From positions 14,354,485 to 14,418,484 of the forward strand of contig NC_134027.1 in assembly GCF_964204645.1 (NCBI RefSeq): DNA of 64,000 bases, in the 5' to 3' direction. This document shows, piece by piece, positions 3,406 to 51,388 of the stretch (position 1 is its first letter; every line of letters begins with the position of its first letter). The translations under genes and the position numbers were made by a program. The notes under the pieces are model-generated. The model did not search any database. It was not told where the DNA came from and worked only from the letters and a program-made list of their open reading frames with translations. The stretch is from Tubulanus polymorphus. Taxonomy: Eukaryota > Animalia > Nemertea.

Positions 3406-4017
3406 TTATTTTATAAATTTATATTTATATGGAAATTGTAATCTCAGCAATAATTTTGAACCTTTATTATTCTTTAACTTATTCATATATTCATCCTGTA
3501 ATTCAGTAGGTATAATTTGATTTTCTTCCAATGATTGTTGCATAGATTTTCTATCTTTTTTATAAAATAAAACTAGAAATCTTATATTCTCCCTAAAGTC
3601 TTTAACAATTGAATTATATTTTTGATTTAAAACCCATGTTGTTATCCCGAAATGTCTCCCAGAGAAAGCTAGATAACATAACTCACTTTCTCTAACTTTT
3701 GAATCATGTAGATTAGCACAATCATCTATAATGAATAATGTATTTGATCCTTTATAAGTATCAATTGCTATTTTAATACAATTATCTAAATTTTCTTTTA
3801 CTGCTTTAGGATCTAATATAATAAACTTTTTTATCTTAACTATATCTCTATTATATGTTTTATTCATTTCATAAGTAGGACAAAATAATATTATATTATC
3901 AAAATGATTCTTATAAATAGTTTCTAACAAGTTTAATATGAAATGTGTTTTACCACAATTGGTTACCCCAGTTATTAACATATTATGTGGTTCAAATATA
4001 AATAAATCTTTATTCAT
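3406..4017 (-). CDS. A32-like (FtsK/HerA) genome-packaging ATPase, copy A
   Basis: Walker A GVTNCGKT, Walker B LFIIDD, GRH motif and LNQKY..I....REN; intact 203-aa frame. Confidence 0.9.
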   Translation of the reverse strand: MNKDLFIFEPHNMLITGVTNCGKTHFILNLLETIYKNHFDNIILFCPTYEMNKTYNRDIVKIKKFIILDPKAVKENLDNCIKIAIDTYKGSNTLFIIDDCANLHDSKVRESELCYLAFSGRHFGITTWVLNQKYNSIVKDFRENIRFLVLFYKKDRKSMQQSLEENQIIPTELQDEYMNKLKNNKGSKLLLRLQFPYKYKFIK

Positions 4018-5101: not shown

Positions 5102-5107
5102 CTTATT

Positions 5108-5467
5108 TTAATCCATTAATAATAATTTAGATTTAGTTTCAATGTTTTTATGATTTGACTTATTTTCTGGTATAATAGCTTTATCATCGGAATCATTATT
5201 GTTATTAAATTTTGATTTATATATTACACCGGATAATATAATAATTGTGATTAACCCAATTGTAATATATAAGTAATTATTTCTTCCACTATTAGAAGAA
5301 TAAGATGGATTGTTATTTGAATCAATGTCAGATAAAGTCTGTGATTCATTTATATAAGTTAATTTCTTTTTCTTAGCTCTTTTTAATTCTGCAGATCTTT
5401 TACCTAATTCTCTTGCCCATTTAATTTGTTTCTCGGATCTAGGCTTTTTCTTAACACCATCACTCAT
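5108..5467 (-). CDS. Polinton small basic protein with one transmembrane helix, copy A
   Basis: Basic N-terminus and YLYITIGLITIIILSGVIY; conserved ortholog at 34915-35283. Confidence 0.75.
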   Translation of the reverse strand: MSDGVKKKPRSEKQIKWARELGKRSAELKRAKKKKLTYINESQTLSDIDSNNNPSYSSNSGRNNYLYITIGLITIIILSGVIYKSKFNNNNDSDDKAIIPENKSNHKNIETKSKLLLMD

Positions 5468-5476
5468 TTATTTTAG

Positions 5477-6067
5477 TTAATTTTGTTCTGGTTCATTTTC
5501 TGTTTCACCGTTTGGGTGTCGTGCGGCACCATCTGTTTCGTTCTTACCTGATTTATATTCAATAGGCTTGATATTCGAAAATGTTATGACACCAGTAGAA
5601 ATTAATGTCATAACCGATCCTAATTGAAATGAAGCATATCCAACCCATTTTTGTAATTCAGTCATAACTAAGTAGTCATTTTTCAAATCACTATATAATT
5701 TATTTTCATCATCAATTGGTATTAACCGGTTACATAACTTAGTATAACATTTGACAATACCATCTGAAATAGAATCATTTATTCTAGCTAATCTAGCTTC
5801 TTCATAAATCTTAAAATATTTTATTACTTTATCGGGTTTCATAGCATCTAATTCTTGAAAAGTAATAGTCTTAGTTAAAAATTGTTTACACTTTCCGCTA
5901 GCAATCAATAGTTCAAGATGGTGCTTACAATATAAGTAGTATTCATAATCAATATTGTTATTAACTTGAATAGAACTAGAAACAACTGGATCCTTATTAT
6001 CATTTATACCCAAATCATCTAATGTTTTTTCAATATCAATACTATTCTTACTCGATTTCTCTGACAT
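5477..6067 (-). CDS. Polinton uncharacterised protein with C-terminal hydrophobic segment, copy A
   Basis: Intact 196-aa ORF starting at TAAATG; ortholog at 34320-34922. Confidence 0.75.
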   Translation of the reverse strand: MSEKSSKNSIDIEKTLDDLGINDNKDPVVSSSIQVNNNIDYEYYLYCKHHLELLIASGKCKQFLTKTITFQELDAMKPDKVIKYFKIYEEARLARINDSISDGIVKCYTKLCNRLIPIDDENKLYSDLKNDYLVMTELQKWVGYASFQLGSVMTLISTGVITFSNIKPIEYKSGKNETDGAARHPNGETENEPEQN

Positions 6068-7194
6068 TTATATTAGAGAAATTTAATAAGAAAAATATTA
6101 TAAGTATTATAAAATGATACTAGATAGTTAAAGTTAAAGAATTCTAGTATTGACTACTGATACTAGCTATTTGAATTTAAAGAATTTCTATTTTAATCTA
6201 TTCAAAATATAAAGTATTCTCTTTTTGAAAAGAAAATATTAAAAATAAAATAGAATTCGCTGGTTAGTTGAAGTTATGTTTTTAAATACTTTTTTTTAAA
6301 ATTAGGATTTAATATCTCACTACTATTGTCTATCTATTAGGAGCAGTAATTATAACTGTCCAGATAAGTCATTTCGGATTCTCGATAATAAATCCTAAAA
6401 CTGAAAATAAATTCAAAGAAACGACTGGTGGAAATACTATTTCATAAACACATATATTTTATTCTACAATCATTATCGATTTCCACATTCCAAGCCACTC
6501 GGCTGAGGAGCGGTAAGGTATGCGTGGAATGCAGGAATCAATAAAGTACAATACAACATCCGTCACTGTGTGTCATTAACAACAGCTTAATGACGCAATT
6601 GAAATTCCGACAAACGTAATGCATTGGAAGCCTATACAGTATGGCTAAACTGCTACAGTCTTATGAGTTGAAATATCCATAATTTCTGATTCCACATCCA
6701 TCCATCTTCACTTTCTTTATTCAATGGTCTTCATTTTGTTATCTAAAAGATAAATATCTAACGTAGAATAAAACTAACTTGAAGTTGTAGTTGTAAAATA
6801 TTAATTACAACACTTAAACATGGCCATTTGTGGCGCATCTTACCAGGGTAAGTTTTACATGTTTAACGTTTCCCAACGCCTTAATAACAACAAAAACAGT
6901 ACTTACATTTATAACTGTAAACTCCTAAAATTGTGTTTATAGAGAGAATATCCTATACGTTCCTATGCTTATGTGCTGCGCGCTTATAACTGCCAGTTAT
7001 TCACTAGCTAAACACTGTCTGAGCAACATATGTTCCTTTGTGATGTAATTGATTAATCCTTTTCAACTGAAATAGCACATTCGATCAATATTCAAATGAG
7101 ATACACCCCATTCAACTGAATATAACGTGCGACAGATGCAAAGAGCTAATACAATTACATATAAGCAGTTTGACATAGATGGTTTTCTAAGCGC

Positions 7195-7848
7195 TTAAGC
7201 TTCAACACATTTTTCATTATGTGTTGAATTCCATAATTCAACAAATGTCTTTGCTTTATCCAGTTGATCTAACTATAACTGTAAATCTAGTTTATTAGAT
7301 TTAATTATGTTTTCCTTCTTTTCTAAAGGTCTTAGATTCTTCCAATTCCAAATAAGTTTTTTATTGTATTCATCATTCATGTCAAATTTAGAAATCGGCA
7401 ACACGTGATCAATATGAAAGTATTCGCCATAATTATCTATATTCATTTTATCATCGAATTGATATATCATCCATTATATGAAAAATTCATCTGAACAACC
7501 CAATAAATTAGATAGTGTTTCTGAATGTGTTTCTTTGTTGAATAATTGTGTTAATCTAGATCTTAAACATTGTTTCAATCTAAAATTAAGATCTGTTTGA
7601 TATCTTCCTCTCATATATTCTGCCATATAATCATTGTAAGCTTCTCTATTATCTTCTCGATATTGTTTGGTATATAGTTTAGTACAAGTTTTACAGCAAT
7701 ATTGAAAACCATCTTTGCTAATCTTACGCTTACTTAATTCTGTTAAAGCTAATTTATCTAATTCACATTTAGAACACTTCTTGTAGTATATATTTATAAC
7801 GCCAGTGTTATTTGTAATATTTATAGTTTGTGGTTGTTCTGATTCCAT
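7195..7848 (-). pseudogene. NCLDV-type HNH (homing) endonuclease with in-frame stops, copy A
   Basis: KKCSKC...CCKTC zinc ribbon, LGCS and HIDHVLPISKF...WNWKNLRPLEKKENIIKSNK; in-frame stops at 7474 and 7273. Confidence 0.8.
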
Positions 7849-8818
7849 TTATTATACATATTTTTTTACTAAATTGATTTTAGAAGTTCAATGATTTAAA
7901 TATGAATTATTTCAATCACACTTTACTATCACTTTTAATGTCTAACTCATACAAATATAGATATTGAAATATGTTTAAAATATATCTATATATCTATTCT
8001 ATAAGAGCTCACACTTAACTAACACTTTTATATTGAATAATCTATCAATTTATATGTTATTCATATATATTTTATTCATGTATATGAATATTTTAAGAGT
8101 AATAGGGGTAATAGGTAACTAATAACCCTTTCAGTGCGGTGTATAAAGTAATAATGAACTTTGCTAGTACACCGCATTATGGTGTATTGATGTTATTAGT
8201 AATAAGTTTTTATCTCCATTCAAACACCTGTCAAACAAATACTCTCACAAACAGAATAATTTCTAGTTCATTTTCTATCAAACTACTGAGGTTGTTAATG
8301 TAAAATTACTATCAATTTAGATGTAAGAAAAATGGTTGACAACTTCTGAAAAAAGTTCACATACCTTTACACATAAAGTCATTAAAACAATTCGCAGGTC
8401 GAAAATAAATTTTTCGATCACTAAACTTCACCATGTGCATACTTTCTAATGTTGATTTATTCAGACATGTAAAACTGTTCAGTCCCTGTGGGTCTGCCTG
8501 AAAATATAAAAGGTAAATAATTTTTCATCATCATTTCATCTGCATAATTTTTTAGCAGGTGCCAAAAGCAACTATCTGAAGATACTACTTTACGCTAGTA
8601 ATGAATAAAGCGACCATTGCCTTACTCCGGTAAATAGTTAAACATAGGTTAGGTACATATCAATATTTTATCTCTGGTACTGACTGAATTAAATGGTTGA
8701 TTTGGACGAGACAATACAGGCAGTAGAAATGAAAAAAATGATTGATGAAGAAGCAATTGATTAGAGATTTTATAATCGTTTTTGTCAAAAATGATAACAC
8801 ATCCATAATACCTTGTAA

Positions 8819-31528: not shown

Positions 31529-31942
31529 GCTCCACTTCGCTACCGCTCCGCTCCGCGACCAATTGATTTATCTACAATACACAAATTCATATAATCAAAT
31601 ATATTCAAATAATAATAATTATTCTATTGTTCAACTGAAATACACACGGTTATGAAAATATATTATAGTTTTAAATTACTTTTAATATTTGTTATTAATG
31701 AGCTCGACCATTCAACCTTTAACCCGAAAGCCCATTGCCCCTATTACTCTTAAAATATTCATATACATGAATAACATATAAATCATTGAACTTCTAAAAT
31801 CAATTTTAATAAAAAATTTAGTATTAAAATGGAAGCAAATAAGTACTACTGTCCAACATGTAATATCAATATAGATAAATCCCAAAAAGCAAGACACAAT
31901 AAAACTAAAACACATTTAGAGAATAAATTGAAACTAGAATAT
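31529..31942 (+). repeat. Left TIR of copy B (414 bp)
   Basis: Near-identical reverse complement of 50975-51388; includes the polB upstream region and first 38 codons. Confidence 0.93.
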
Positions 31943-33225: not shown

Positions 33226-33341
33226 AAGGAATCGAAACAACTTATCAAAAGCAGCGAGGAATGAAAAAGGATGACGTTGGTCGAAGAAATGGAAGAGGAT
33301 TCTAAAATATTAACCGATTTAGTAAAAAATACGTATAATAA

Positions 33342-33995
33342 ATGGAACCAGAACAACCACAAATTATCAATATTACAAATAACACTGGTGTTATAAATAT
33401 ATATTACAAGAAGTGTTCTAAGTGTGAATTAGATAAATTAGCTTTAACAGAATTTAGTAAGCGTAAGATTAGCAAAGATGGTTTTCAATATTGCTGTAAA
33501 ACTTGCACTAAACTATATACTAAACAATATCGAGAAGATAATATAGAACATTATAATTATTTTATGGCAGAATATATGAGAGAAAGATATCAAACAGATC
33601 TTAATTTTAGATTGAAACAATGCTTAAGATCTAGATTAACACAATTATTCAACAAAGAAACACATTCAGAAACACTATCTAATTTATTGGGTTGTTCAGA
33701 TGAATTTCTCAAATCATGGATTATATTTCAATTCGATGATAAAATGAATATAGATAATTATGGGGATTATTACCATATTGATCATACGTTACCGATTTCT
33801 AAATTTAACATGAATGATGAATACAATAAAAAACTTATTTGGAATTGGAAGAATTTAAGACCTTTAGAAAAGAAGGAAAACATAATTAAATCTAATAAAC
33901 TAGATTGACAGTTATATTTAGAACAGTTAACAAAGGCAAAGAAATTTATTGATCAATGGAACAATGATCCAAATAATGAACAATACGTTGAGTAA
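33342..33995 (+). pseudogene. NCLDV-type HNH endonuclease, copy B (premature TGA at 33906-08)
   Basis: KKCSKC/CCKTC and HIDHTLPISKF...NLRPLEKKENIIKSNK; the frame continues past the TGA to ...NEQYVE*. Confidence 0.8.
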
Positions 33996-34319
33996 TTTGA
34001 TATCAAGGATCCGAAATGACTTATCTAGACAGTTATAATTACTGCTCCTAATAGATAAACAAAAGTAGTGAGATATCAAATAGATTTTAAATAAAAAGTA
34101 TTTAAAAAACAATAACTTCAACAAGCTTGTGAATTCTATTATATTTTTAATATTTTCTTTTCAAAAAAATACTTTATATCACAAATAAAAAATACTAAAA
34201 AAACAATAACTAATACTAAAATTCTTTACCTTTAACTAAGCTAGTATTAATCTAAAGAGATACTGGTATCATTTGAAGAATACTTATAATATTTTTTTTG
34301 CTTTTTTTCTCTAATATAA

Positions 34320-34922
34320 ATGTCAAAGAAATCTAATAAGAATAGTATTGATATTAAAAAAACATTAGATTATTTAGGTATTAGTGATAATAAAGATACA
34401 GTTGTTTCTAATTCTATTCAAGTTAATAACAATATAGATTAAGAATACTATTTATATTGTAAGCATCATCTAGAACTATTGATTGCCGGTGGAAAAACTA
34501 ATGAGTTTTTAAATAGAATCATTACTTTTCAAGAAATAGACTCTATGAAACCAGATAAAGTAATAAAATATTTTAAGATTTATGAAGAAGCTCGATTAGC
34601 TAGAATAAATGATTCTATTTCAGATGGTATTGTCAAATGTTATTCTAAGTTATGTAACCAGTTAATACCAATTGATGATGAAAATAAATTATATAGTGAT
34701 TTAAAAAATGACTACTTAGTTATAACTGAATTACAAAAATGGGTTGGTTATGCTTCATTCCAATTAGGATCGGTTATGACATTAATTTCTACTGGCGTCA
34801 TAACATTTTCGAACATCAAGCCTATGGAATATAAATCAGGCAAGAACGAAACAGATGTACTACAACCAAACGTCGAAACAGAAAATGAATCAGAACAAAA
34901 ATTAACTAAAATAAATGAGTGA
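34320..34922 (+). pseudogene. Ortholog of 5477-6067 with one in-frame stop near 34440
   Basis: TAAATG start at 34320 is in frame with ORF 34479-34922. Confidence 0.75.
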
Positions 34923-35289: not shown

Positions 35290-38138
35290 ATGAAAAAAGA
35301 ACAATATTTAAGAGATTTATATTATAACCCAGAAAGTGAAGTATCATATTCTAACGTTGCAGAATTATGGAATAAAATTAAATCTGATAATAGTGATGGT
35401 GCCGTACGGCACCCACATGGTGGTATAAAATATAGTGAATTAAAATCATGGTTACAAAATCAACCAACATATCAAATCCACAAGAAAATGGATAAAACTT
35501 ATTTAACAAGAAAAGTTATGGTTTCATATATTGATCAACAATGGCAAGCAGATTTAATTGACATGAAGAACTTAGAGGAATACAACAAAGGATATTTCTG
35601 GATATTAAATGTTATAGACATATTCAGTAGATACGCATGGTCAATTCCAATCAAAAATAAAACTGGAATAGAAGTAACAAATGCTTTTAAATCTATATTT
35701 AAATATATCGATGTGTTAGATGATTTAGTGAAAGGTTATAATAATTCTAAACATAGTTCTATAAATATGAAACCTATACAAGCTAGAAAAGAAGATAATT
35801 CGGAAATAGTTTGGAATAATTTATATGGGGCGTTTGTTACACACGATTTCGGTGAACCTAAATTTAAAATAGGACAACACGTAAGAATATCTAAATATCG
35901 AAAAACATTTTAAAAGGTTATACCCCAAATTTTACTGAAGAAATATTCAAGATTAAAAAGATAATATTAACTAAACCTTTTGTTTATAAATTAGAAGATC
36001 TAAAAGATGAACAAATATTAGGTTATTTCTATGAACAAGAATTATCACTTGTACCAAATCCAGATGAAATAGAATACAAAATAGAACCAGAAAGAAACTT
36101 TCCATGATGGGTTTCTGTGTAATTGTTTCTGTTTCATTCACCCAACTCGCTGTCAACAAGGTATATTTCTAAAAGGAAATATACTGCGACAGGTGGTTTT
36201 GCAAAGTCATTAAAAATCAAGATCCTATTGTATCTAAGGATACAATTATTCCGATTTTGGAGAGAGAGAAGTCATAAAGAATGAATAAATTAATGAAGAT
36301 TACAAAATCGGAAGTAACAAACGAACAGTTTAAAAGAGGAAGCACCCGTCGCGATAAAATGAAGATTTAAATATTACAAAATCATTATGAAAAACGAAAT
36401 GAAAAGAGACAAATGCTACCGTTGATAGTATTCACGTACAAATTGTAGAATGAGAATAGAAAATTTAATTGAATACAAGTTCCGAGAAGAGCAAAGAGAT
36501 TTAGACAATCAATTCGGCGGCTTGAAATAAAGAAACTGCTTAAAAAATGAATAAACTCGAATGCAAGATCTTTGCTTTCGAATAATTTGTTAATTACAAG
36601 GGTAGACCTAAGGTTCATATAAATCTATATTTTTGAATTTTGAAATCAGGGGATCTAAAAATAGTATTCATCATTACGGGACGTCGATTCAGAAATTAAT
36701 TTTTCAGGGAAGAGCCGATCAGCCTTCCAGAAAGGGAATGCGCATCATCCGTGAGTGTCGCAAAAAATTATCTCATTGCTAATTAAAGTTGAAAAATAAC
36801 ATGTACGTTGTTTTCTGAATACTAAAAGATTCTTGATTTTATTTGTGTTCTGTCTACTTAATTGCGGAAATCCGATGTATTTGCAGTACTGGGAACAATA
36901 AAGTATTGAATAAAGTAACAATTAAGTATATTTGATGAGTATCAATAAAGTATATTTGAACTTGAATTTGAGCCCACTAGGTGGTGGTATTGGAAGACAC
37001 CAGGTGGTTCGATCAACTTAATATGCTCCAGCGCCGTGGCGCTGTCGCAAAAAGGCGATTCTCGATATAAATAGTAATGGGTTTTCCCCGCGGGATACCC
37101 GCTTTGGGAAAGGCACCTGAATCGATGCTACGAGTTCGAATCCCAAAATGTAGACGTAATTTATTATTCTTTGAAATAAATTCTTAGAATTTCTATTTAT
37201 GATAGGATGTGCAGGTTTTGATTTAGTAATGATGTTAATAAAAGTTAACCTCTTAAGGTATTGTTTTCTATCTATTATTTGTGACGGATTAGTTTCGATG
37301 CTCCTCACAACCCGCCCCACCACGTGTCACTTATTCACGGACACGCGGATTGTATCATTTGTAATAGGCCTACCACATGAAAGAGTCAATGGCCTACCGT
37401 AGAATAGTAGGGCCTACCGATCACGCTATGTGCGATGAAAGTAGTGTTTGAATAAAACAAATTTTTAATGAAATAAACATTATTTATCATAATTAATCAA
37501 TAGATCAGGTGCCGCATAAATAATTGTTTGTTTCGTGAAATTCATACAAAACTTTGCGACTTCGTCATGTCTTGTGACCCTGAAAATACTAGAAGAATCA
37601 TCGGTAAGCTTATAAAACGGCGAGGTCAACATAGTAACAACAACTTCGGGGATTGAAAAAAAAAACTCGAAAGAATTATTTCTTATACTGATGAGTTATA
37701 CTGATGGGGAGTAGCGACCGTCATTGACACCGGTTATTTATCCATTCACTATCAAATGTGACGAGCCCAATAAATGATTGCGCATAGATTCGGCCTCTCA
37801 GCATTTAGCACAGCAGTTCCGAGAAGTGTTAAGACCGATCAGCGCGCGCGCTATCTAAAACCGGTGCTAGTACGATCAATATCTACAGGTATATACGTGT
37901 TCAGTATTACACAGCGAGTACCAGTATGTTGATCGAGCGTCGTCGTAGCAACGCGCTAGACAGCGGCTGGAACTAGCGAGTAACGTTAATTATCTTTTAA
38001 CCAAATTAGAGGACTTATAACCATCGGAATCAAATATAAACCAAGCTGCACCATCTACATCAAGTAGAGAATACCTGTGTGAAATTACAGAATTGTCGGT
38101 CCACCCAAACAGCTTAAATCGTGTCATAAACAAACATC

Positions 38139-38186
<48 letters not shown>

Positions 38187-38353
38187 TGACGACGATGCCA
38201 TAGATGGGTTCGTCTGACGACGAAACCCATCAAAAAGTATTGAAAACAAAAACTCTTAAAGGAAAAAAGTATTCTTTGGTGAAATATAAAGGATATGATG
38301 ATAAATTTAATGAATGGATTTTATCTAGTAAAATTAAAAGAATAAATGAATAA
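35290..38353 (+). pseudogene. rve integrase-chromodomain, copy B: catalytic core deleted, frameshifted and interrupted by a HINE
   Basis: Joins FKSIFK directly to YIDVLD, losing the QFDEGKEF and IERCN motifs present in copy A. The chromodomain is split at 36086/38232. Confidence 0.88.
36087..38231 (-). mobile_element. Non-autonomous Helentron-associated (DINE-1/HINE-like) element
   Basis: On the minus strand it is inserted in a T-run and shows a 5' hairpin GATGGGTTTCGTC..GACGAACCCATC, a (GTCT)n microsatellite (38142-38186), and a 3' subterminal IR GAAACCCATC followed by a short stem-loop; no TSD. Confidence 0.8.
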
Positions 38354-38957
38354 AGATTTATTTATATTTGAACCGCATAATATGTTAGTTACTGGAGTAA
38401 CCAATTGTGGTAAAACACATTTCATATTAGACTTGTTAGAAACTATTTATAAGAATCATTTTGATAATATAATATTATTCTGTCCTACTTATGAAATGAA
38501 TAAAACATATAATAGAGATATAGTTAAGATAAAAAAGTTTATTATATTAGATCCTAAAACAGTAAAAGAAAATTTAGATAATTGTATAAAAATAGCAATT
38601 GATACTTATAAAGGATCAAATACATTATTCATTGTAGATGATTGCGCAAATTTACATGATTCAAAAGTTAGAGAAAGTGAGTTATGTTATTTAGCTTTCT
38701 CTGGGAGACATTTTGGGATAACAACATGGGTTTTAAATCAAAAATATAATTCAATTGTTAAAGACTTTAGGGAGAATATAAGATTTCTAGTTTTATTTTA
38801 TAACAAAGATAAAAAATCTATGCAACAATCATTGGAAGAAAATCAAATTATACCTACTGAATTACATGATGAATATATGAATAAATTAAAGAATAATAAA
38901 GGTTCAAAATTATTACTGAGACTACAATTTCCCTATGAATATAAATTTATAAAATAA
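38346..38957 (+). CDS. A32-like packaging ATPase, copy B
   Basis: GVTNCGKT, LFIVDD and GRH motifs; intact. Confidence 0.9.
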   Translation: MNKDLFIFEPHNMLVTGVTNCGKTHFILDLLETIYKNHFDNIILFCPTYEMNKTYNRDIVKIKKFIILDPKTVKENLDNCIKIAIDTYKGSNTLFIVDDCANLHDSKVRESELCYLAFSGRHFGITTWVLNQKYNSIVKDFRENIRFLVLFYNKDKKSMQQSLEENQIIPTELHDEYMNKLKNNKGSKLLLRLQFPYEYKFIK

Positions 38958-39340: not shown

Positions 39341-40291
39341 TTACTTTTTGAGTGTTAGATAATCACTTTCTGAATCACTTTCATCATCACTCTCCAATTC
39401 ACTATCAAACCCTAACAATTTTCTCAATTTCTCTACCGAATCTTCTTCTAATTCTTCATTATTTTTATACTTATTCTTCGTCTTTTTTACCGCATCATCA
39501 ATAGTTGTTTCAATGTTTTGCTTACTCATCCTTTCTATCACATCATCAATAGTTTCTTCTTTATGTTTCATAGAATCTTTATTATCAATATGCTTATCTG
39601 TAACTTTATTTTCATTATCATCTTTATTAGTGTTTGTTCCTAATATTTCATTTACAGTGTTTGATCCTAATATTTCATTAGCATCGGTTAAATCTAATTC
39701 ATCTTTATTAGGTGTTGCTAATAATAAATCTTCATATATATTTTCACCATTTACTTTTTTATTTGAAACAAATTTTGTAACATATCTAAATGGGTGTTCT
39801 ATAAATTCTCTTAAACCAACACGTTCTATAACATTAGTAATATGTGAATTTGTATTCATATGTTTATTCCAATTTGATGGAGCGTTTGAAAATTCACCTT
39901 TACAATAATCACAATAATTTCTATTTTTACTAACATTTAATATTATTGCATTATTATATGTAGAAGGTATTACATTATTAGATGTAGAAGGTATTATATT
40001 ATTAGATGTAGTAGGTATTACATTATTAGATGTAGTAGGTATTACATTATTAGATGTAGAAGGTATTACATTATTAGATGTAGAAGGTATTACATTATTA
40101 TCAATTACATTACTTAAATTATCAACAACTTCACTTTTATTATTATCGATTTCTATTAGTTTAGTTTTATAAATTTTGAAAATAGGATCAAATATCAAAG
40201 CTATATTACAAGGTTATACATAATATAAACCATCATTATTTTCATGTGTATCGATGTATGGAATATGTTTATATACTTTACCTCCTTCCAT
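39341..40291 (-). pseudogene. Repeat/zinc-finger protein with acidic tail, copy B (stop at codon 26)
   Basis: TAAATG start at 40291 (MEGGKVYKH...). TAA replaces the ATA codon seen in copy A; in frame with 39341-40198. Confidence 0.8.
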
Positions 40292-40323
40292 TTATTATAT
40301 AGATTTTTATTAAAGTAAAAATT

Positions 40324-41571
40324 TTAATACATAACACTATTTAATTGAGAATTTACAATATTTAATTGCGCGTCAGATATAATATAAATGTGCATTTTAA
40401 AATTTTTGATTCCTTTATTTTTTGTCATGAATAATTGTATTCCATCTTTAGTGTTCTGTAGTTTTTTTCCAGAACCATGTAATGAATTATCCTCTGTTGT
40501 TCTAAAATCTAACCATAATGCATATTTATTACCGGTATAATAATCAATTTGATTAATGTTACAATTTTCAGATGATTTTACCTTTTCATTCATAAAATGT
40601 TTTCTAATTTCTGGCCATTGATCTATCATTCTCATTCCTTGACAAAATATTCTATTTGCTATTCCTTCGATAGTTATTTCTACTTTTGTTATTTCAGGAT
40701 TATAATAATTATCAACATTTATTGCGCCATTAGTATATGTTGCAATTGTAAAAAATATTAATATACCTTTAATAGATCTTCTTGGGAAGTTAATATTCTC
40801 ATTAATTATTTCATCATTTGCATTAATAGTTACAGTTTTAAATTGATCAATATAATCATATAATAATGAAAATCCTTGATTGTATTGAGTTTGAATTATA
40901 CTTGAAATATTTTCATCAGTTACTGTATCATATTCTAAACATATATTCGATAATTTATAACCCATATCTTTAACAACGCCAGATAATACAATTTCATTTA
41001 CAGGAGCAAATGTTATCTCAAATATAATATTTTCTTGAATTACATATTTATATAAAGGTGCATTATTATTTATCAATTCAAAGTCTAATGGAATTTTATA
41101 TTTGCTTCCATAAATCTTTTTTATCAAATTATCTGTGGCACGAGTTACTATTGCGTCATTAGCTCCCGATCTTAATTTATTATGGTTTTCCGATTGAATA
41201 CCCTGAAATATCATATTATTTCTATTTTCTTTAGTTAACCATAAATCTTTATAATGCATAAATAAATTATAATCATCTAATGAGAAAACTGTTTCTGGAC
41301 AAATCTTTATAGTTAATTTTTTAATCAAATACCTTCCAACATTATCAACAACATAATTATTATTATTACCGATTTCTTTTATATCGGCTGATAAATAAAT
41401 ACTATTTGGAACGTAAAAAGTATTTTGTGTTAATCGAGGAATTCTAACATATAAAGTTTCATCAGGATTAATATTAGAAGGGTTATGAGTAATTATATGA
41501 TGTGATCTTTCTGCTTTAATAGCATTAGATATTCTAGAAATCTTAGAAGGACTTATATAACTCCCACTCAT
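40324..41571 (-). CDS. Putative double-jelly-roll major capsid protein
   Basis: Intact 415-aa beta-rich ORF (LYVRIP, IYLSADI, IKKLTIKI, YKIPLDF, IIFEITFAP, LSNICLEYD, ITKVEITIEG, LWLDFR) of the expected size in a pPolB/ATPase element. The fold is inferred. Confidence 0.7.
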   Translation of the reverse strand: MSGSYISPSKISRISNAIKAERSHHIITHNPSNINPDETLYVRIPRLTQNTFYVPNSIYLSADIKEIGNNNNYVVDNVGRYLIKKLTIKICPETVFSLDDYNLFMHYKDLWLTKENRNNMIFQGIQSENHNKLRSGANDAIVTRATDNLIKKIYGSKYKIPLDFELINNNAPLYKYVIQENIIFEITFAPVNEIVLSGVVKDMGYKLSNICLEYDTVTDENISSIIQTQYNQGFSLLYDYIDQFKTVTINANDEIINENINFPRRSIKGILIFFTIATYTNGAINVDNYYNPEITKVEITIEGIANRIFCQGMRMIDQWPEIRKHFMNEKVKSSENCNINQIDYYTGNKYALWLDFRTTEDNSLHGSGKKLQNTKDGIQLFMTKNKGIKNFKMHIYIISDAQLNIVNSQLNSVMY

Positions 41572-43077
41572 TTATTTAACAAAAAAATTAATTATTAATT
41601 TTTTATTATTTTTTTCTTGATATCTTTTTGATATCATATTCACTAACCCAAAAATAATAGCACTTACAACTGTAATTAAAAATAAAATAATATGTTCAGC
41701 AGCAAAGTTAATAATGTTTCCTGCAGATTTCAATATAAAACCAACATTTGATGCAATAATTCCAGGTAAAGCTGCAGCAGATTTTTTAGATAGTTCCCAT
41801 AAATATTTTGCTAATTTCTTTAAACCATCTTTAACTTTATCTTGTATAGAATTATTATCATTCGGGGGTTTATCTGGTTTATTGGGAGTAGGAGTAGATT
41901 TCAAAGCATTTGATATAGCTAAACCTATTGTTGTAAATAACATAGTTACAGCTGTTAGAATTGAAAGAATTGTTATTCCTTCAAACTTAAATAATAATTT
42001 TATTCTATCTTTCAATGATATTTTAGAATCTGGTTTTATTAGATATCTTTTAAAAACATCTTTTAATCTATTAATATTATAATCATATGATTTTAATAAT
42101 AATTTAATTTCTTCTTTTTGTAATTCTATGTTATATTCTAAATCATCTTCTTCTTTTTCTAAACGTAATTCTTTTTGCCTATATTCTATTTCATCAAGTA
42201 ATTGATTATCTAAATCAGACTTTAATTGTTCTATTTCTTTATTTTTATCAGTTAATTCTTTTTCTAAAGTTCTAATTTTAAAATCTCTTATACTTTTATC
42301 ATGCGCAATTTTATCAGATGCAAGTCTTATACTAATAATTTCTCTAATTGCTGTATCAGAAAATATATCTAAATCTTCTAATTCTTGATCTGTTGCGTCA
42401 AGTAATCCATTCGGTAAAAGTTTTTCAATTGGAACTTTATTTGATTTAGGTTTACTAGTTTTGGAAGTTTTATTCTGTTCAGAACTTGTTTCTGGTTCTA
42501 AATTATTATCGATTGTTTCAAATAATTTATTGATTCTTTGTTTAAATACTCTTTCATTTTTAATAATTTCTTCTTGTGTTACATCTTCTATTTCATTACT
42601 ATTTCTTATTATTTTAATTCTAGATAGTAATGAGTCAGACTTAAGCAAAGTTGATTCTGCTTATATTTTTTTTTGTTTTTTATAAGAGATATCAATATAA
42701 TAATCATCTTTCAAACGATAATAATATTCACCATCTAAAAACTTTAATTCTTGTACTAAAAGTCTAGCGCCTCTATCATTTATATTATATCCAGATTCTT
42801 TAAATACATGTTGAAATTCATACATAAATTCATAATTTTCTAAACCTGGGTCTAAATTTTCAGTAGGTATTCTCGATCTAATTCTTCTATCATTTTCTTC
42901 TGTTGATGGGACTTTAGAACCACTATCTGCTAAATTAGAATTATATGCTGATTCATCATCATTATCAATATTAGTTTCATTAAGATTAGCACCTGCATCA
43001 TTATAATCATCATCAATATATCCTTCATTATTATTTCCCATGTCATCCAATGGAATATCTTCTCCACCTTCTGCCAT
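41572..43077 (-). pseudogene. ~500-aa protein with acidic N-terminus, coiled coil and C-terminal hydrophobic/amphipathic helices (one in-frame TAA at 42661-63)
   Basis: ORFs 42661-43077 and 41572-42648 are in the same frame, 12 nt apart; two or three TM-like segments. Confidence 0.7.
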
Positions 43078-43093
43078 TTACATAATAAAAAAA

Positions 43094-44391
43094 TTAAAAT
43101 TTGAAATATAATATTCCTCCTATAACAATTCCTATACAGGTTATAGCTAATTTAGTATTTTCATGGGATTTATTATCATCATTTAGTTTAATTATTTCAT
43201 GTTGAATAATATCAGTTTTAATATTTTCTGATGTATTATAATCCGGTTTAGAATCATTATGCAATTTAATATTTTTAGTTTTAGTTTCTGTTGATTGAAT
43301 GTGTTTTTTATTTTTTTCACCTTCCATTAATTTTGGAGCAGTAATTATCTTTTTATTTATATCATTCAATCCAAATGAATTATTTATTGTTGCAGTTTTA
43401 ATTAGATTATTATAACCAATTATATTTCCCATCTTCAATACTAAATCATTAGAAATAATTAATAGATTAGGGCCTATACAATAATTTAATCTAATATGTG
43501 ATTTATCTAAATAATTTTGATATCTTACAATGTTTTCTGGAATCGATCTATTTTTATCATTATGTATAGAATCTTCAAATAAAACTTTAAATTGTTTCTG
43601 CGCATCGAATGAAGTGTTATCATTTCCAATTATTGGGGATCTTGTTTCAACTTGCGCACCTAAAATACATATCAAATAAGTTCTAATTGATTGATTTATT
43701 CTTTGTATACCTGATTTTGTAAAACCTTCACCATTTTCTAAAATGAAATTAACCCAACCATTATTATTATCAATTTTATAATTATGATAAGCTGAAATTC
43801 TATGCATATAATCAATTCTTTTTATTTCAAACTCTTCACCTACACCTTGCAATTTACCATGCGCTCTGAAATCGGAATTAATATTTATATTAAATTCATT
43901 ACATATTTTATAAAACTTAGATAGATTAATATTATTATCCAATTGTTTAAAATATTTAGACCCGGGTAAAGGACATTCTAATTCATTTAATATTATTCTG
44001 ATTTGAAAATATGTGTGAAATCTGAATATTGTGTGAATAATTTTTAATCAGAATACTTCAAATTTTTATCTAAGTTATTCAAATGATCATTCCAACTAAT
44101 TCCACATCCTGTTGTTGCACAATAAACAGCAAAATCTAATTGGTTCTGCCAATATTTCATATTAGATTTTACTTTATATATATGGTATTCATCTCGAGTA
44201 AAAGTAACTTCATATGTATTAAATATATTTTCCATTTTAGAAATAAAAAACTGTGATTCAGTAACATAAATTTCTAAATTAGTTAATGAATTCAAAACTA
44301 CATTTCTATATGTAATATTTTTCTTAAAATCTATTGCAGGAATATTATATTTAATTGATTTATTATATTGGAAAGCTTTTGGAAACCCCAT
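43094..44391 (-). pseudogene. ~430-aa uncharacterised protein with C-terminal TM anchor (frameshift near 44044)
   Basis: YWQNQLDFAVYCATTGCGIS followed by a shifted frame IFRFHTYFQIRIILNELECPLPG that runs into ORF 43094-43942; ends LAITCIGIVIGGILYF. Confidence 0.7.
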
Positions 44392-44407
44392 TTATATAAT
44401 TAAAAAA

Positions 44408-44842
44408 TTAATAATCAACTAATTCTTTTAATAATTTATCTTGTTCTTCAACTGTTATTTGGCCATTTAAACTTATTATATAATCTAGTGTGTTCTTTAA
44501 TTTATTAATTTCTTTTATATTAGTTTTAATTTTTTCTTTATTACTTTTTATATTTAATTTTGAACTTATACCAGTTAAAACACTTGAACTTAATCCTAAC
44601 ACACCAATTGATATAGCTAAAGGTGTTAATGGACTGAATATTGCTAGAAATGTTATTACAGAACTAATTGTAACCGAACCACTTATAATCAAATAATATA
44701 TAATTTTACTTTTTAAATATTTTTTCTTTTTAAGTTTTAAGTCACTTTCAAATTCTAATATTTGTTTTTCTAAATATATTTTTAATTTAGTTTTATTTAT
44801 ATCATGGGGAATAATATCAATATTATCAACTTTATCTTCCAT
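44408..44842 (-). CDS. Two-TM hairpin protein flanked by helical segments
   Basis: IIYYLIISGSVTISSVITFLAIF / LAISIGVLGLSSSVLTGIS; intact, with a TAAATG start. Confidence 0.7.
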   Translation of the reverse strand: MEDKVDNIDIIPHDINKTKLKIYLEKQILEFESDLKLKKKKYLKSKIIYYLIISGSVTISSVITFLAIFSPLTPLAISIGVLGLSSSVLTGISSKLNIKSNKEKIKTNIKEINKLKNTLDYIISLNGQITVEEQDKLLKELVDY

Positions 44843-44862
44843 TTATTTAGAAAAAAAAATTA

Positions 44863-45285
44863 CTAATTAGTAAATTTATATGCTACAAATATAACAATAA
44901 CTGTTCCGCCTAAAATCCATATTATTTCATATTTCTGTTGTTCTTTACTTGGGGTATAATAATCTGATAATTTAGGTTTGTATAGATGTAATTTTTCTTT
45001 ATTTGTTACTGCGTTATATAAACTCATTGCATCATCAACTGATTGAAAATCTCTATGTGAAATCTTCTGATCATATAATTCTTTATTGATGTAATCCATA
45101 TAGTTTTGTCTCTTTTCTCTATATTCTTCTGCAGCTTTATTGTATTTCTCTAACGCTAAGTTATGTCTTCTTTGTTCTCCTAATGAACTATTTTTATCAA
45201 TATGTTTAATTAAATATCCGCCACCAGTAAATGCTAAAGCGTTAACAATTGCCGATCCTATAATAGTTATAATTGCAGAAGCCAT
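44863..45285 (-). CDS. Small membrane protein with N-terminal hydrophobic helix and C-terminal TM
   Basis: MASAIITIIGSAIVNALAFTGGGYL...IIWILGGTVIVIFVAY. Confidence 0.7.
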   Translation of the reverse strand: MASAIITIIGSAIVNALAFTGGGYLIKHIDKNSSLGEQRRHNLALEKYNKAAEEYREKRQNYMDYINKELYDQKISHRDFQSVDDAMSLYNAVTNKEKLHLYKPKLSDYYTPSKEQQKYEIIWILGGTVIVIFVAYKFTN

Positions 45286-45309
45286 TTATTTAGCAAAAAA
45301 ATTATGCAT

Positions 45310-45531
45310 TTATATGGGAGGAATATATTTTTGTTTTTCTAAATAATCAATAGTTAAATTAGATAAAGTAACTGTTAATGTTAATTTTAAAATATCATTT
45401 ATATAAAATCTATCAACATTAACACTTCCCATTTTGAATACTTTTTTTAATACCATTGAATAACCAACAGTTCCAACTGATAGTAATGCTCCATTATATA
45501 ATCCAGTTATTATCCACTTATTATCACTCAT
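45310..45531 (-). CDS. 73-aa hydrophobic protein
   Basis: Intact ORF carrying the conserved T-run/TAAATG start element. Confidence 0.65.
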   Translation of the reverse strand: MSDNKWIITGLYNGALLSVGTVGYSMVLKKVFKMGSVNVDRFYINDILKLTLTVTLSNLTIDYLEKQKYIPPI

Positions 45532-45635
45532 TTATTTATCAAAAAAATTACTATCATCAAAATATTTAGTTATCTTAGTGATGATTAATTCAACATTTAT
45601 TTCATTACTAGTTTCAGATGTATATATTTCAATTA

Positions 45636-45887
45636 TTATTCTTTAATATCATCGATGATAAAATCTACATCTAATTCATAAAATCTTAAAGATTCTCTAA
45701 TTAAATTAGTAATCTTTTCTACATTTAAAGTTTCTTTATCTATTGTTGTTTCATACTCAAATGTTGTTTCATTTGAAAATGTAATATTTTTGATGTGTGT
45801 AATTACATCATTAACGTTAAATTTCATTTCTTTCTCACGTTTAAAATCAAATCCAAAACATATACTACGCCCAACAGTTATATTCAT
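45636..45887 (-). CDS. Small uncharacterised protein (possibly shortened by a stop)
   Basis: T-run/TAAATG start; coding-like sequence continues toward ~45550. Confidence 0.55.
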   Translation of the reverse strand: MNITVGRSICFGFDFKREKEMKFNVNDVITHIKNITFSNETTFEYETTIDKETLNVEKITNLIRESLRFYELDVDFIIDDIKE

Positions 45888-45903
45888 TTATATAATGAAA
45901 AAA

Positions 45904-46659
45904 TTACTCTCTACATCTTATAACTAATTCATAAATTACAGGAAAGTTATTCAAATCAATTAAATAACCATTATGATTTCTTACTTCTAACTTAAAATTG
46001 TTAAATTGAGGAATGCATGGTTTGAAATCACATTCAGCTAAATTATAATTTATTTGAGTTCCAAATTGTTTAACATTTTTCAGCGGTAAAATATTTAATA
46101 TACTAGAATTACAAATTGTATCTTTAGTTGCTTCGAAAATTTTTTTAGGCTCGATTAAATTGCAATAAATATAAAAGTGTGTAAAAGGTATTATATTTGT
46201 ATAAGTATCAATATTTGAATAATGTCTATCCGAAAGAATTCCAAACAGTTTAGCTAAAGGTTTTCTTACTAGAAATCTATGTTGTTCATTAGTTAACTTT
46301 ATTCTTATTTTATTCGAACTATCACTTTTGATGAATTTAATTTCAAATCGAGCAGCTGAGCCCATTTTTAAACGAGCTCTTTTATTAATTTCTTGCGCTA
46401 ATGTTTCTAAATTATATAATCATGGTTTTTAGATAAAGATGAAACCATTTATTCAAATTTCTATCATAAATTTTAAAAGCTAAATGATCAAGACTTTTAT
46501 TCGATATATTATGAAAAGAATTACATAAACTTATATTAACTAATTTTAAATCAACACAATTCTTAAATTCTCTATCTAATTGAACTAGTAAATTATGTGA
46601 TTTATAATTTGTATGTCTTCTAGAATCTACAAATATTCTGTATTCTTTTAATTTACCAT
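45904..46659 (-). pseudogene. Putative minor capsid (penton-like single jelly roll), frameshifted
   Basis: N-terminal YRIFVDSR...LLVQLDREFKN and C-terminal FYIYCNLIEP...ILNILP...FNNFKLEVRNHNGYLIDL...YELVIR match the Polinton minor-capsid pattern. Confidence 0.7.
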
Positions 46660-46676
46660 TTATTTTACATATTTTC

Positions 46677-47030
46677 TCATTCGAAATCTATTTCATGGTG
46701 CCCTTTTTCATTCTTACCTTTGTATACGAAATAGAAATCTCCAGAACATAATTCTTCTAAATCTTCACTTGATAATCTATGAAATCTATCAGGTAAATAT
46801 GTTCTGAATTTAAATGTATTTCCTTTTAATCCTTCATATTCTAAGTGTATAACTAATTTATCTCCATAGTTATTAGTAACTGTAACAATATTTGTAATTA
46901 GATATTTCTTATGAATTGTTAATTCTGTTAACTTTTTGAATTTATAATCTACAGATTTTACATTTGTTATATCTATAATTCTATCTAGAAATAATTTGTT
47001 GTTCTCACTGTGCGCTTGTTTACTCTCCAT
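46677..47030 (-). CDS. 117-aa beta-rich protein next to pPolB (possible OB-fold ssDNA-binding protein)
   Basis: FKKLTEL...YLI...TNNYGDKLVIHLE...YLPDRF...FVYKG; intact. Function is inferred. Confidence 0.55.
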   Translation of the reverse strand: MESKQAHSENNKLFLDRIIDITNVKSVDYKFKKLTELTIHKKYLITNIVTVTNNYGDKLVIHLEYEGLKGNTFKFRTYLPDRFHRLSSEDLEELCSGDFYFVYKGKNEKGHHEIDFE

Positions 47031-47062
47031 TTTAATAACATATTTTTAATAAAAAAATTTGA

Positions 47063-50000
47063 TTAACACGTTAGAATTCTTTTCATTATCTCGTTCTCTT
47101 TTGTTTCTTCTCTTTTAAATTTTAAGTATTCATCTAAATTGCAACCATAAGCAACTGTATGAATTCCATCATCTAAAATATATCTTTTATCATCAAATGG
47201 GTTTAGACTTATCTTTTCAATTTCTTCAATAAACATTTCATGATCTTCAGATCTTAAACATCTCATCTTATGTTTTCTAACTTCTTCATTGAATATACAA
47301 TTGATGTAATCTTTGAAATGAATATTCTTTTCTACTACACTTTTGGTTATTCCTTTTAACTTTTTAGCTTCATGTTCTTTAGTTTTATATGAATACATTT
47401 TAGATCTAATACCGATGAACTCTATCATTTCTTCACCACCTAATTCATCTTTGAATTTATCTTTTTTATTATCATTGCTAAACAATTCATGATCTTTAGG
47501 ATAGTTACTAAAATCAAAATGATGTTTTAATGTTTTTAAATCATCAGTTATGTTATCAGTTTTTATCTTTAATATGTAACTGTCGGTATCACAATATAAT
47601 ATTTCTATATGTTTTTCTCCAAAAAGTGGTTGTAATATATTATAATAGAATTCATACATTAGTAATTTTGATAATTCTAAAACTGAAGCGCCAACATAGA
47701 TTGGTTTATTAAATTTCATTGATGTTCTTCTCATCTTAACTGCGGCTAAATTTTCATCAAATATTCTGTTACCAATGAACTTAGGATATGTTTGTAAATG
47801 TCTAATTCTTTTACCATTACTAACTAACTCAATATCATTTCTATTTCTAATATTTTCACAAGTCTTACCATAGAATGCATTATTCATTAACTTGAAGAAA
47901 TCTTTCTCGAAATCAGTTTTAGCTTTAGTTCTCTGTTTGGTGTTAAAATCTATATATTTTTCTAACCACTTAGATTGACTGAATGAAATATATCTATGTA
48001 CTTTTTTTAGAATCATTCCTTGTTTTAGATAAAACTTTAACATTCTATAATGTACTACATAATTATATTTATCTTTCTGAGTTACCATTAACTTTTCTGT
48101 ATGAATATGATTTTCGGGTTTAATTCTTTTTTGGTAATTTGATAATTCTTCATGAGTTACAGTTTTATGTTCGGGACAATAAGCTAGATTTCTAGATTTA
48201 AATTTAATATGTTCAGGATATTCTAAGTCTACAACAAAGAAGTAACCAGTATCTGAATCATCTGCAATATCTAGAATTCTTTTCTTCCAATCAAATTTAT
48301 CATTATTTTCATTCGGTAAAACTTCAGTTAATTCAAATACTCCATAAGGTTGTGGTTCCATCATTGCCCAACCATACAAATTATTTGCATCTATATATAA
48401 TAACTTATATCAAGGATTATCATTTACATTGAAATATCTATCACCTAATACACCTGAAACTCCTCCTCTTATAGATTTTTCAAATAATAATAATTGATCT
48501 ATATTTGTTAACAAATCCATTTTTATATCTGTAAATTTTAATCCACAATCCCATGTTAAACCTGGTGATGAATAACAATGACAAGGATCAATGTTAAAAT
48601 ATTTTAGGTTTACATCTCTAAACCTTTCGAATATATCGGTTAATAATAATACATCTGATTTTAAATATAAATCTACTAATTGCCCATGATTTTCTATTTT
48701 GAAATGATTCCAAATATTCAATGTTCTATTATATACTTCATCTTTAACATATTCATTTTTTAATTCATCATAAAATTGTTCTTTCAATAATTCAGTTATG
48801 TTAAAATCATTATGATTTTTATAGAAAGAATATGGAATTGCTCCTTTATATCTCATTAATTGGAAATCATCATTATTTGGATAGTGTTGTTTTAATATCT
48901 TTAATTCATCATCAACTAATGATTTTGATAAGTTATCTAATGAACTATTTAAAAATCTATATGAATCTATAAATCTTAGACACCCAAGTTGGAATGATAT
49001 ATAATTCTCAGATGTTTTAGCTAACATTCTAAATTTATAAGTTGGTATTTTATCTTTTGATCTATTTGAATTTAATATTTCTATTTCATTATTGATTTCT
49101 TCTATTTTATGGCATAACTGTTTGATGAATAAATGTGCATCATATCCTGATAGATTATGAAATATAACTGGTACAAAATTAATTTTCTTAGCTTGTAAGT
49201 TACAATTCTCATGTGCAGCGCCTCTAAACTTTCCGTTCAAATGATCATGGTCTCTTACGTTTTTATCTTTATAATTAAATATCTTTTCACAATAATAACA
49301 TTTATCTGCAAACGCAAATTCTTCTTTATCTTCTTCTGTCATTATAATTTCTATATTTGTATTCAATAATTTACTTAATCTTATTTCATATTCAATTAAT
49401 AAGTCACAAAAATGATTGATAACATTTTCATTTCTGTAAAGATAATATTCACTTTCAATTAGTTCTGGATAATCAGATTTTATATATAACCCGAAAGCAG
49501 CAGCTGATTGATGAATCTATTTAATTGTATTTGTTTTTGGTGGTTCATCTGAAAAATCATTTTCATTAGAATTTAATTTCTTTCTTTTATAATATATTTC
49601 TTTTCTATCTTGATCAGTTAATTCTTTATTTAATGATTCAAAATCTCCATATATTACAAATGGTACTTTATTTTTGTAATCATATTTTTTGAATTCTAAT
49701 ATTTTATCCTTTTCATTTGGTAAAACTAATTTACAATAATCATGATTTTCACATAATTGTTTATGATTTAATAATGTACTTTCATTACTGAATCTATGTA
49801 AACATTTTCTACAAAGATATATTTTATGGTGATCATTTTCTGATTTGAAAAATAAATCGATTTGTTTAATCCACATATAATGATTCTCATAATATAATAT
49901 ATCTATAATATCATTTGAATCATAATCTTTTGATAGATATAAAGGTTCTAATGTATAATGTTTTATATTGTTACCTTTTGTATTTGGTAATTTGATTAAA

Positions 50001-51088
50001 TCAAATACATTTATTCTTAAATTATTATCTCTTTCTATTTTTGGGATGTTTTTAATTCTAACAGGATACTTATCTATCTTATAATTATTTTCAAATGGTT
50101 TATAATGAGTTAATCTACAAATATTATAAGTTGCAGGATGTAAACAACTTATTATAGTCCATAGTAAACATTTATCATCAAAATTTTGTACATTTATTAC
50201 AGCATTAGTTTTAAATGGTAGTTTAATATAACTTGTTCCATTTATACTATCATCTTTATAATATGATAAATTATTTTCATCAATTGGTTTTGATTTAGTT
50301 AACTTATTATATTTTGTGTTATAAACATGTAAAGTCATAAATATTATTTCATCAAATATTAAACCAGATCCTTCAAAATATTTCTCTTCTATTTTAGTTT
50401 TTACTTCATTATAACATTTATCTAACTTATCATCTATATGTTGTTTTGAAATAATATGTTGTGAATGAGAATTTATATTATATATTGGTTTATCTTCAGA
50501 TTTTATAAACTTTACTTTAGAAGATATACTTATTTTAGGATATTCAAAATCTGTAATTATTTTTATTATTTCTTTCATATTTTCTAAATGTTTTTTATTT
50601 TCTTCTAATGTTTTTCCTTTATGAAATTTAAACTCGATAGCTGCTGGACCAATATCACTTTTAAATGCTTCGGTTATCTCTATATCTTTTTTATTATCTA
50701 ATGAATTAATATAATTTCTTACATCTTCCATGTATGGTCTTTTATTGTTTAATTCATTTTTTATGCTTTTAATTGTCTTCTGTTTCTTATCGTTATCATT
50801 ATCAAAATAATCTTCACCTAAAATATCATTATTCTTATTTCTAATATGACTTATAGATTTTAAATGTTCTTTATAATATCTTTTATCACTGAATGATTGA
50901 TTACATGTATCACATTTATATGTTTCTTTTTCATTCTTTAATTCTTCTAATTTAGTTTCTAATATATCATCTTTATATTCTAGTTTCAATTTATTCTCTA
51001 AATGTGTTTTAGTTTTATTGTGTCTTGCTTTTTGGGATTTATCTATATTGATATTACATGTTGGAGAGTAGTACTTATTTGCTTCCAT
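47063..51088 (-). pseudogene. Protein-primed family B DNA polymerase (~1340 codons) with N-terminal Zn fingers, OTU-like protease and inserted endonuclease-VII domain; two in-frame stops
   Basis: Three ORFs lie in one frame, separated by TAG (49517-19) and TGA (48410-12). Motifs: EGSG, NFDDKCLLW...NHY, YGDFES, CYYC..VRDHDHLNGKFRGAAHENCN, FHNLSGYD, YLKSDV, YIDANNLYG, KLMNNAFYGK, YCDTDS. Confidence 0.95.
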
Positions 51089-51388
51089 TTTAATACTAAA
51101 TTTTTTATTAAAATTGATTTTAGAAGTTCAATGATTTATATGTTATTCATGTATATGAATATTTTAAGAGTAATAGGGGTAATGGGCTTTCGGGTTAAAG
51201 GTTGAATGGTCGAGTCCATTAATAACAAATATTAAGAGTAATTTAAAACTATAATATATTTTCATAACCGTGTGTATTTCAGTTGAACAATAGAATAATA
51301 ATTATTATTTGAATATATTTGATTATATGAATTTGTGTATTGTAAATAAATCAATTGGTCGCGGAGCGGAGCGGTAGCGAAGTGGAGC
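50975..51388 (-). repeat. Right TIR of copy B (414 bp)
   Basis: Reverse complement of 31529-31942; ends GCGGAGCGGAGCGGTAGCGAAGTGGAGC. Confidence 0.93.

Follow-up and report, generated by a model that had tools for sequence, protein, structure and literature searches.

In the 64-kb window analysed here, the whole stretch of 64,000 nucleotides taken from contig NC_134027.1 of the nemertean Tubulanus polymorphus, positions ~31350-51400 are a decayed Polinton/Maverick element, and nearly all of its genes carry a conserved signal directly at the start codon. In one form, this signal is a run of T, a short spacer and TAAATG. The signal is real, conserved and clade-defining, and in every sequence test run it behaved like the postreplicative promoters of poxviruses. 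We consider it probable, from these comparisons, that the motif is a poxvirus-type intermediate/late (postreplicative) promoter, which a pox-like helper virus would read with its RNA polymerase during co-infection. A sequence-only reading of this DNA had listed seven sites with a T-run, spacer and TAAATG on the minus strand, and all of them are present as listed:

41569..41587, minus strand: T7-N6-TAAATG before the major capsid gene, overlapping the last codons of the upstream gene
43075..43093, minus strand: T7-N6-TAAATG before the ~500 aa multi-transmembrane gene F5
44389..44407, minus strand: T6-N7-TAAATG before the ~440 aa gene F4, which has a C-terminal hydrophobic segment
44840..44859, minus strand: T9-N5-TAAATG before the 144 aa membrane gene F53
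45283..45301, minus strand: T7-N6-TAAATG before the 140 aa membrane gene F7
45529..45547, minus strand: T7-N6-TAAATG before the conserved 73 aa gene F9
45885..45903, minus strand: T6-N7-TAAATG before a gene of 126 aa in the intact relative L003, shortened here and with no known function

Three of these seven genes (F5, F4 and the 126 aa gene) are broken in the window copy. The sequence-only reading had described the seven as structural and membrane genes, which holds for one confirmed capsid protein and four proteins with predicted transmembrane segments, but the remaining two have neither and no known function.

The pattern T6-9–N5-7–TAAATG was counted in dinucleotide shuffles of 40300-46400 and in shuffles of the whole window. 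The region contains 7 sites against a shuffle mean of 0.071 (maximum 3), with none of 1000 shuffles reaching 7, and there were no pattern matches on its opposite strand. For the whole window the shuffle mean was 0.99 and the observed count was reached in 0/100 shuffles. The near-fixed spacing beyond chance that had been proposed is therefore borne out: the T-run begins 13 nt before TAAATG at six sites and 14 nt at one, and the spacer is 5-7 nt at 7/7. T occupies the 10th nt upstream of TAAAT at 7/7, but the clade described below peaks at the 9th nt. A run of at least six T at 7-13 nt upstream was found at 8/12 TAAATG gene starts, compared with 0/39 other TAAATG of the element (P=8e-7), even though these 39 include one real start, at 46659. 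As the motif is not equally common away from gene starts, the poxvirus late-promoter reading survives this comparison.

The letters before the T-run are TAA at all seven sites, so the AA that had been noted before each run is always there. However, at three sites this TAA is the stop codon of the upstream gene, and at another one it follows in frame as an additional stop, so it need not belong to the promoter.

The signal is found at the seven genes as claimed, but it extends well beyond them. Among the 16 genes of the element, 13 start with TAAATG, two (pPolB and F52) with TAAAATG, and the integrase gene with neither. A T-run lies upstream of eight starts, while an A-run lies upstream of the other five TAAATG starts and both TAAAATG starts. 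The additional sites are:

34302..34322, plus strand: eighth T-run–TAAATG site, before the conserved gene F3
46657..46680, minus strand: A-run TAAATG start of F11, a candidate minor capsid protein by its size and position
40289..40312, minus strand: A-run TAAATG start of the zinc-finger gene F24
38325..38348, plus strand: A-run TAAATG start of the A32 packaging ATPase gene
34894..34917, plus strand: A-run TAAATG start of the small membrane gene F29
33321..33344, plus strand: A-run TAAATG start of the HNH-type nuclease gene F20 (nuclease call via a homologue)
51086..51110, minus strand: A-run TAAAATG start of pPolB, with the initiator letters of the vaccinia G8R intermediate promoter
47028..47052, minus strand: A-run TAAAATG start of the 117 aa gene F52

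Across the clade described below, the mean T count at positions 7-13 was 5.2 for the capsid gene (n=13) and 2.2 for the ATPase gene (n=5), a description rather than an independent test.

To place the signal among related elements, 78 related loci were collected, of which the 53 whose match reached the capsid N-terminus were used for the capsid-start count. TAAATG preceded the capsid start in 13/14 loci at 51% identity or more and in 0/39 at 44% or less, three of the latter having no ATG found. In a tree of 39 intact capsid proteins (L014, with a short open reading frame (ORF), was omitted), the 14 rows with TAAATG form one side of a branch with 100/97 support, and the other 25 rows are without it. 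After removal of near-duplicates from the start counts (L002, L014 and the second window copy; L025, L042, L054, L061 and L072), 48/62 homology-supported clade starts read TAAATG, compared with 128/2674 (4.8%) other ATGs. In distant loci TAAATG was found at 6/247 starts, and at 1/36 in those that are AT-rich, whereas clade loci of 36-44% GC keep it at 3/3, 3/5 and 3/4 starts. The tightest upstream letter in the clade is T at the 9th nt (51/54 starts), with T at the 10th nt in 41/54, and 20/54 clade starts read TATAAATG.

Other Maverick lineages have start-proximal motifs of their own. In sister lineages (L015-L017, L029, L030 and L033), ATATA lies just before the start, at 9/13 and 12/14 starts against a 3-4% background; it resembles the late initiator TATA described for African swine fever virus (ASFV; PMC7163114). 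VLTF3-like proteins are encoded by two of these sister elements, L017 (E 3.6e-5) and L033 (E 1.3e-16). A third lineage (L021, L022, L026, L031 and L039) has TAAAA before ATG at 12/18 starts, against 10.5%, and two further Maverick groups showed weak start motifs.

As described in the sources consulted, vaccinia late promoters carry TAAAT(G) over the start codon with a T-rich core 5-7 nt upstream (PMC5294985) and T near the 10th nt; late promoters of poxviruses prefer T upstream and intermediate promoters prefer A (PMC11980589), and TAAAATG is an initiator in the vaccinia G8R scaffold (PMC12917281). The clade signal is similar to these late and intermediate promoters in having TAAAT(G) at the start, T-rich or A-rich sequence upstream, a TAAAATG variant and short bidirectional spacers. 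It differs in lying within a Polinton without a detected RNA polymerase, in a T peak at the 9th rather than the 10th-11th nt and in a stricter consensus, and its activity here is predicted. A motif scan of viral contigs, in which 13/120 of the matches listed were at gene starts and most were chance, provided a poxvirus control. This was a chordopoxvirus locus (Pfam Pox_A11-A16), in which the A14 start reads TAA-T7-N6-TAAATG. Over 20 kb of it, 11/22 ORFs start with TAAATG, and the T fraction at 7-13 nt is 0.62 against a background of 0.33, compared with 0.63 against 0.33 in the clade. In five entomopox-type loci (L200 being identical to the named RPO132 of Melanoplus sanguinipes entomopoxvirus (MSEV), and L204 removed as a duplicate), 53/108 starts read TAAATG. 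Poxvirus loci also have the head-to-head layout seen in the clade. A matrix built from the entomopox starts separated clade starts from other TAAATG with an area under the curve (AUC) of 0.90, compared with 0.80 for column-shuffled matrices (2/1000 shuffles as high), and the seven window sites scored 3.4-4.8 on it, against -3.0±3.5. The likeness to poxvirus late promoters that had been proposed is therefore supported, at the level of sequence, by the geometry of vaccinia promoters and by real poxvirus starts.

The element was also searched for transcription machinery of its own. There was no Pfam match to RNA polymerase, TBP, TFIIB or VLTF in the frames of the window and L003, and a VLTF3 profile made from the two sister elements had no match among the element ORFs. 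VLTF3 is known from some polintoviruses (PMC11131425). Searches of the function-less ORFs against PDB and Atlas found no match, which remote folds could escape. Upstream of the clade starts, neither a TATA box at RNA polymerase II distance (7/54 against an 8.5% background) nor the poxvirus early motif (8/54 against 10%) was enriched. Between the element genes and the pox loci, profile searches detected no homology beyond the A32 ATPase.

Several observations weigh against a pox-like helper. T at the 9th nt, found in 51/54 clade starts, occurs in 5/11 chordopox starts (peak at 10-11) and 27/53 entomopox starts (no peak), and T6-N4-9-TAAATG occurs in 22/54 clade starts compared with 3/11 and 5/53, respectively. 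The clade is thus stricter than, and shifted from, every poxvirus sampled, and its T peak is matched by none of them. The chordopox matrix gave a marginal result (AUC 0.82 against 0.67 shuffled, 50/1000 as high), and the AUC of 0.80 for shuffled entomopox matrices indicates that much of the matrix separation is plain AT-richness. Runs of at least five T are found in 15/21 starts within 30 nt of a stop but in 3/12 head-to-head starts; since long T-runs are commoner behind stops, they may in part act as terminators. Equally tight packing is seen in distant Mavericks that have no TAAATG (26 head-to-head pairs, many under 50 nt), so packing alone is no sign of viral transcription. The integrase gene is without the motif in both window copies, and the clade loci are related, so the counts are not independent. 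Several element proteins are without an assigned fold, so a remote TBP/TFIIB-like fold may be present among them. No helper virus was found or linked to the host, and coral polintoviruses are expressed with no helper named in the available text of PMC11131425.

Readings that involve no promoter were considered together. The region is 77-78% AT, and a product of this composition by chance would be the simplest explanation, but we regard it as scarcely credible given the shuffles, the empty opposite strand and the 0/39 non-start TAAATG; moreover, the signal is kept in GC-richer relatives and is absent from AT-rich distant ones. A chance origin was accordingly rejected by the shuffle, clade and distant-locus counts. 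A composite signal acting on RNA is another candidate, in which the T-run ends the upstream gene and TAAATG is a translation context, a poly(A) signal or a stop-start junction. The T-run lies directly behind a stop at 4/7 sites, which, with the excess of T-runs near stops given above, is consistent with this. T5NT (PMC3061580) and ASFV-type poly(T) (PMC7163114) are described as terminators; T5NT lies within 25 nt of 18/54 clade starts, and 24/54 overlap AATAAA. However, T at the 9th nt is kept irrespective of an upstream stop, in 12/12 head-to-head starts and 19/21 starts far from a stop, indicating that the spacing is tied to the ATG. Among the head-to-head pairs of the clade, 6/7 have TAAATG on both strands, 19-30 nt apart and in four independent layouts; with no gene ending there, this speaks against reading the motif as a splice site, poly(A) signal or stop-start junction. 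As a general cause, stop-start coupling was rejected, with 4/54 starts being such junctions. A splice acceptor, which had been raised as an alternative, was rejected as well, with no AG within 15 nt upstream at any of the seven sites; in the clade, an AG occurs within 12 nt at 8/54 starts. Under the Kozak rule, a eukaryotic start is poorly served by T at -3. The clade starts have T at -3 in 79% and G at +4 in 40/54, which fits a transcript beginning at AAA that leaves the T untranscribed. On balance, an explanation at the RNA level alone seems very unlikely, while the T-run could serve as promoter core and terminator alike.

If the signal is a promoter, the remaining question is which polymerase reads it. 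The element integrates through its rve integrase and is highly multi-copy (its family was found in 9511 contigs in run X1), and these features would fit a lineage-specific initiator that RNA polymerase II of the host reads in the nucleus, perhaps helped by a factor that the element encodes, the pox likeness being convergent. The start-proximal motifs of the sister lineages, two of which encode VLTF3-like proteins, the 20/54 starts with TATAAATG and a T-at-9 signature that fits no sampled poxvirus are in line with this. A TATA adjoining ATG, however, cannot serve the same gene in canonical geometry. Neither TBP, TFIIB nor VLTF3 was detected in the window or the scanned clade loci, TATA is not enriched at polymerase II distance, and the letters that do not vary match the pox initiator; we therefore judge the host polymerase unlikely. 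The shifted T peak and stricter consensus could also reflect a viral promoter belonging to some unsampled relative of the poxviruses, a cytoplasmic large DNA virus that lies outside Poxviridae and likewise uses TAAAT. TAAAN initiators are described in yeast cytoplasmic virus-like elements (PMC6211774), and a TAAAT motif at ranavirus DNA polymerase promoters (PMC5294985). Against this, TAAATG over the start is a poxvirus hallmark in the literature checked, where the late initiator of ASFV is TATA (PMC7163114) and the motif of Cafeteria roenbergensis virus (CroV) is TCTA (PMC8547959), and a helper outside the poxviruses appears to us quite improbable.

Under the favoured reading, the RNA polymerase of a pox-like helper would start within the AAA of TAAATG, and slippage would add a poly(A) leader, so that the preceding T would never be transcribed. 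A start of this kind, with a poly(A) leader made by slippage, is described for vaccinia and yeast virus-like elements (PMC6211774). Starts with T-runs, as in the capsid and membrane genes, would be late-like, and starts with A-runs, as in the ATPase, pPolB and nuclease genes, intermediate-like. The element would rely on its own pPolB for copying and on its own capsid and ATPase for packaging, in the cytoplasmic factory of the helper, and would persist between helper infections through integration, like mavirus with CroV. For the passage of an integrated copy from the nucleus to the factory, the proposal offers no step. Several divergent pox-like RNA polymerase subunits are present in public assemblies (P0246, P0248-P0254 and P0258; L202, L204 and L205), and unsampled pox relatives are candidate helpers.

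The window copy of the Polinton is decayed and is probably a fossil. Its features are:

40324..41571, minus strand: major capsid protein, double jelly-roll, 415 aa, intact (predicted model with a predicted local distance difference test (pLDDT) score of 88; Foldseek match to the capsid of the chlorella virus PBCV-1, E 3.6e-17)
41572..46659, minus strand: block of genes behind the motifs, collinear with L003, a relative that is intact; broken here are F5, F4, F11 and the 126 aa gene
47063..51088, minus strand: pPolB, which also has an endonuclease VII domain and is encoded by a gene interrupted here (Pfam DNA_pol_B_2, above cut-off, and Endonuclease_7)
38346..38957, plus strand: A32-like packaging ATPase (Pfam Pox_A32, E 4e-12)
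35290..36086, plus strand: retroviral-type integrase (rve, E 2.4e-4), broken; the sole gene without TAAA(A)TG
31529..31942: 414 bp inverted-repeat arm, 98% identical to 50975-51388, candidate element end
50975..51388: other inverted-repeat arm, containing the pPolB start region
1..7874: second, partial copy, 87-94% identical, with TAAATG kept at 4/5 gene starts

The integrase of the second copy has an rve match with E 1.5e-9. In the main copy, ~2.1 kb of unrelated sequence (36086-38232) splits the integrase gene, and in the second copy an ORF with a zf-AD domain (E 3e-7) is inserted at 1887-2261; taken by itself this domain, like a weak Baculo_F match, would hint at an arthropod host. The inverted-repeat ends are rearranged, and one lies within a palindrome of 400 bp. 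This imperfect palindrome (31345-31748, 76%) has a GC-rich loop of 24 nt at its centre and resembles either a hairpin terminus or a concatemer junction, which would be unusual for a protein-primed element. At 32870-33224, two to three GC-rich direct repeats of ~100 nt lie upstream of the HNH gene. Remains of other mobile elements are present at 14762-25131, 51807-52547 and 58960-60575, and include a reverse transcriptase, a PIF1 helicase, a 648 aa transposon-like ORF, DUF6589 and a weak Baculo_F-like ORF. The best named matches of the flanking transposon were to an echinoderm and bivalves (38-44%), followed by insects.

The element shares pPolB, the rve integrase, the A32 ATPase and the double jelly-roll capsid with Mavericks/Polintons (Polintoviricetes, 'adintoviruses'), most of which, unlike this element, are without TAAATG; its inverted repeats are candidates for the terminal repeats of such elements. 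No Pfam match to an adenovirus-type cysteine protease was found in the ORFs of the window or L003. The element apparently belongs to Maverick/Polinton group 2, a putative label drawn from the missing protease. Relatives of the capsid were found in none of the viral contigs, prokaryote genomes or phage records searched. Several assemblies labelled Bartonella sp. include short contigs with a capsid homologue of 55% identity (P0044 cluster), which is probably contamination by animal DNA. A deoxynucleoside kinase gene, of a type common in large DNA viruses, is present in two elements of the TAAATG clade (L003:10343-10981 and L010:2898-3377); a search with it returned four relatives and no clue to a helper.

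Sharing of promoters between an element and its helper is already known from mavirus and the endogenous mavirus-like elements (EMALEs) of Cafeteria. Mavirus and EMALE genes carry a late motif of the helper type, with different types having different motifs (PMC8547959). As here, these are integrating elements with pPolB, rve and a jelly-roll capsid, but they live in a protist host with CroV as helper, a TCTA motif and helper dependence established by experiment, whereas the element described here has an animal host, a pox-type motif and a hypothetical helper. Polinton-like viruses have been described in entomopoxvirus occlusion bodies and proposed to be poxvirus parasites (Barth et al. 2024, PMC11296320), which makes the life cycle suggested here plausible. 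Their genes include those for a mu-like protein and a protease of the adenovirus type, but not rve, a gene content that differs from that of the element here, and the main text of that paper does not mention 'promoter', 'motif' or 'TAAAT'. The cytoplasmic linear plasmids of yeast (pGKL) are likewise pPolB elements with a TAAAN initiator, which in their case yields poly(A) leaders (PMC6211774). Unlike the Polinton here, they lack a capsid, and they encode a capping enzyme and a pox-like RNA polymerase themselves. No report of pox-type promoters in animal Polintons was found in the literature searched, a scope that ended short of subscription papers and preprint supplements, and promoters are not discussed in the available text of PMC8502044, PMC11131425 and two 2026 preprints on Polintons.

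Animal Polintons might be transposons, nuclear viruses that live autonomously or parasites of larger viruses; the question is open, and most of them are without a known virion or helper. If nearly all genes of one clade have a pox-type promoter, this names a class of helper and makes the question testable with reporters. It is possible, although we hold it to be somewhat less than an even prospect, that the whole animal Maverick clade consists of endogenous poxvirus virophages with late-like and intermediate-like promoters. The sister clades with ATATA or TAAAA would then depend on different large DNA viruses of the cytoplasm, such as asfarvirus-like ones, and the start motif would predict the helper, including viruses still unfound in these animals. 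If this is true, the virophage lifestyle, and possibly antiviral defence of the virophage type, would reach from protists to animal genomes, and the promoters would point to unsampled poxviruses of invertebrates.

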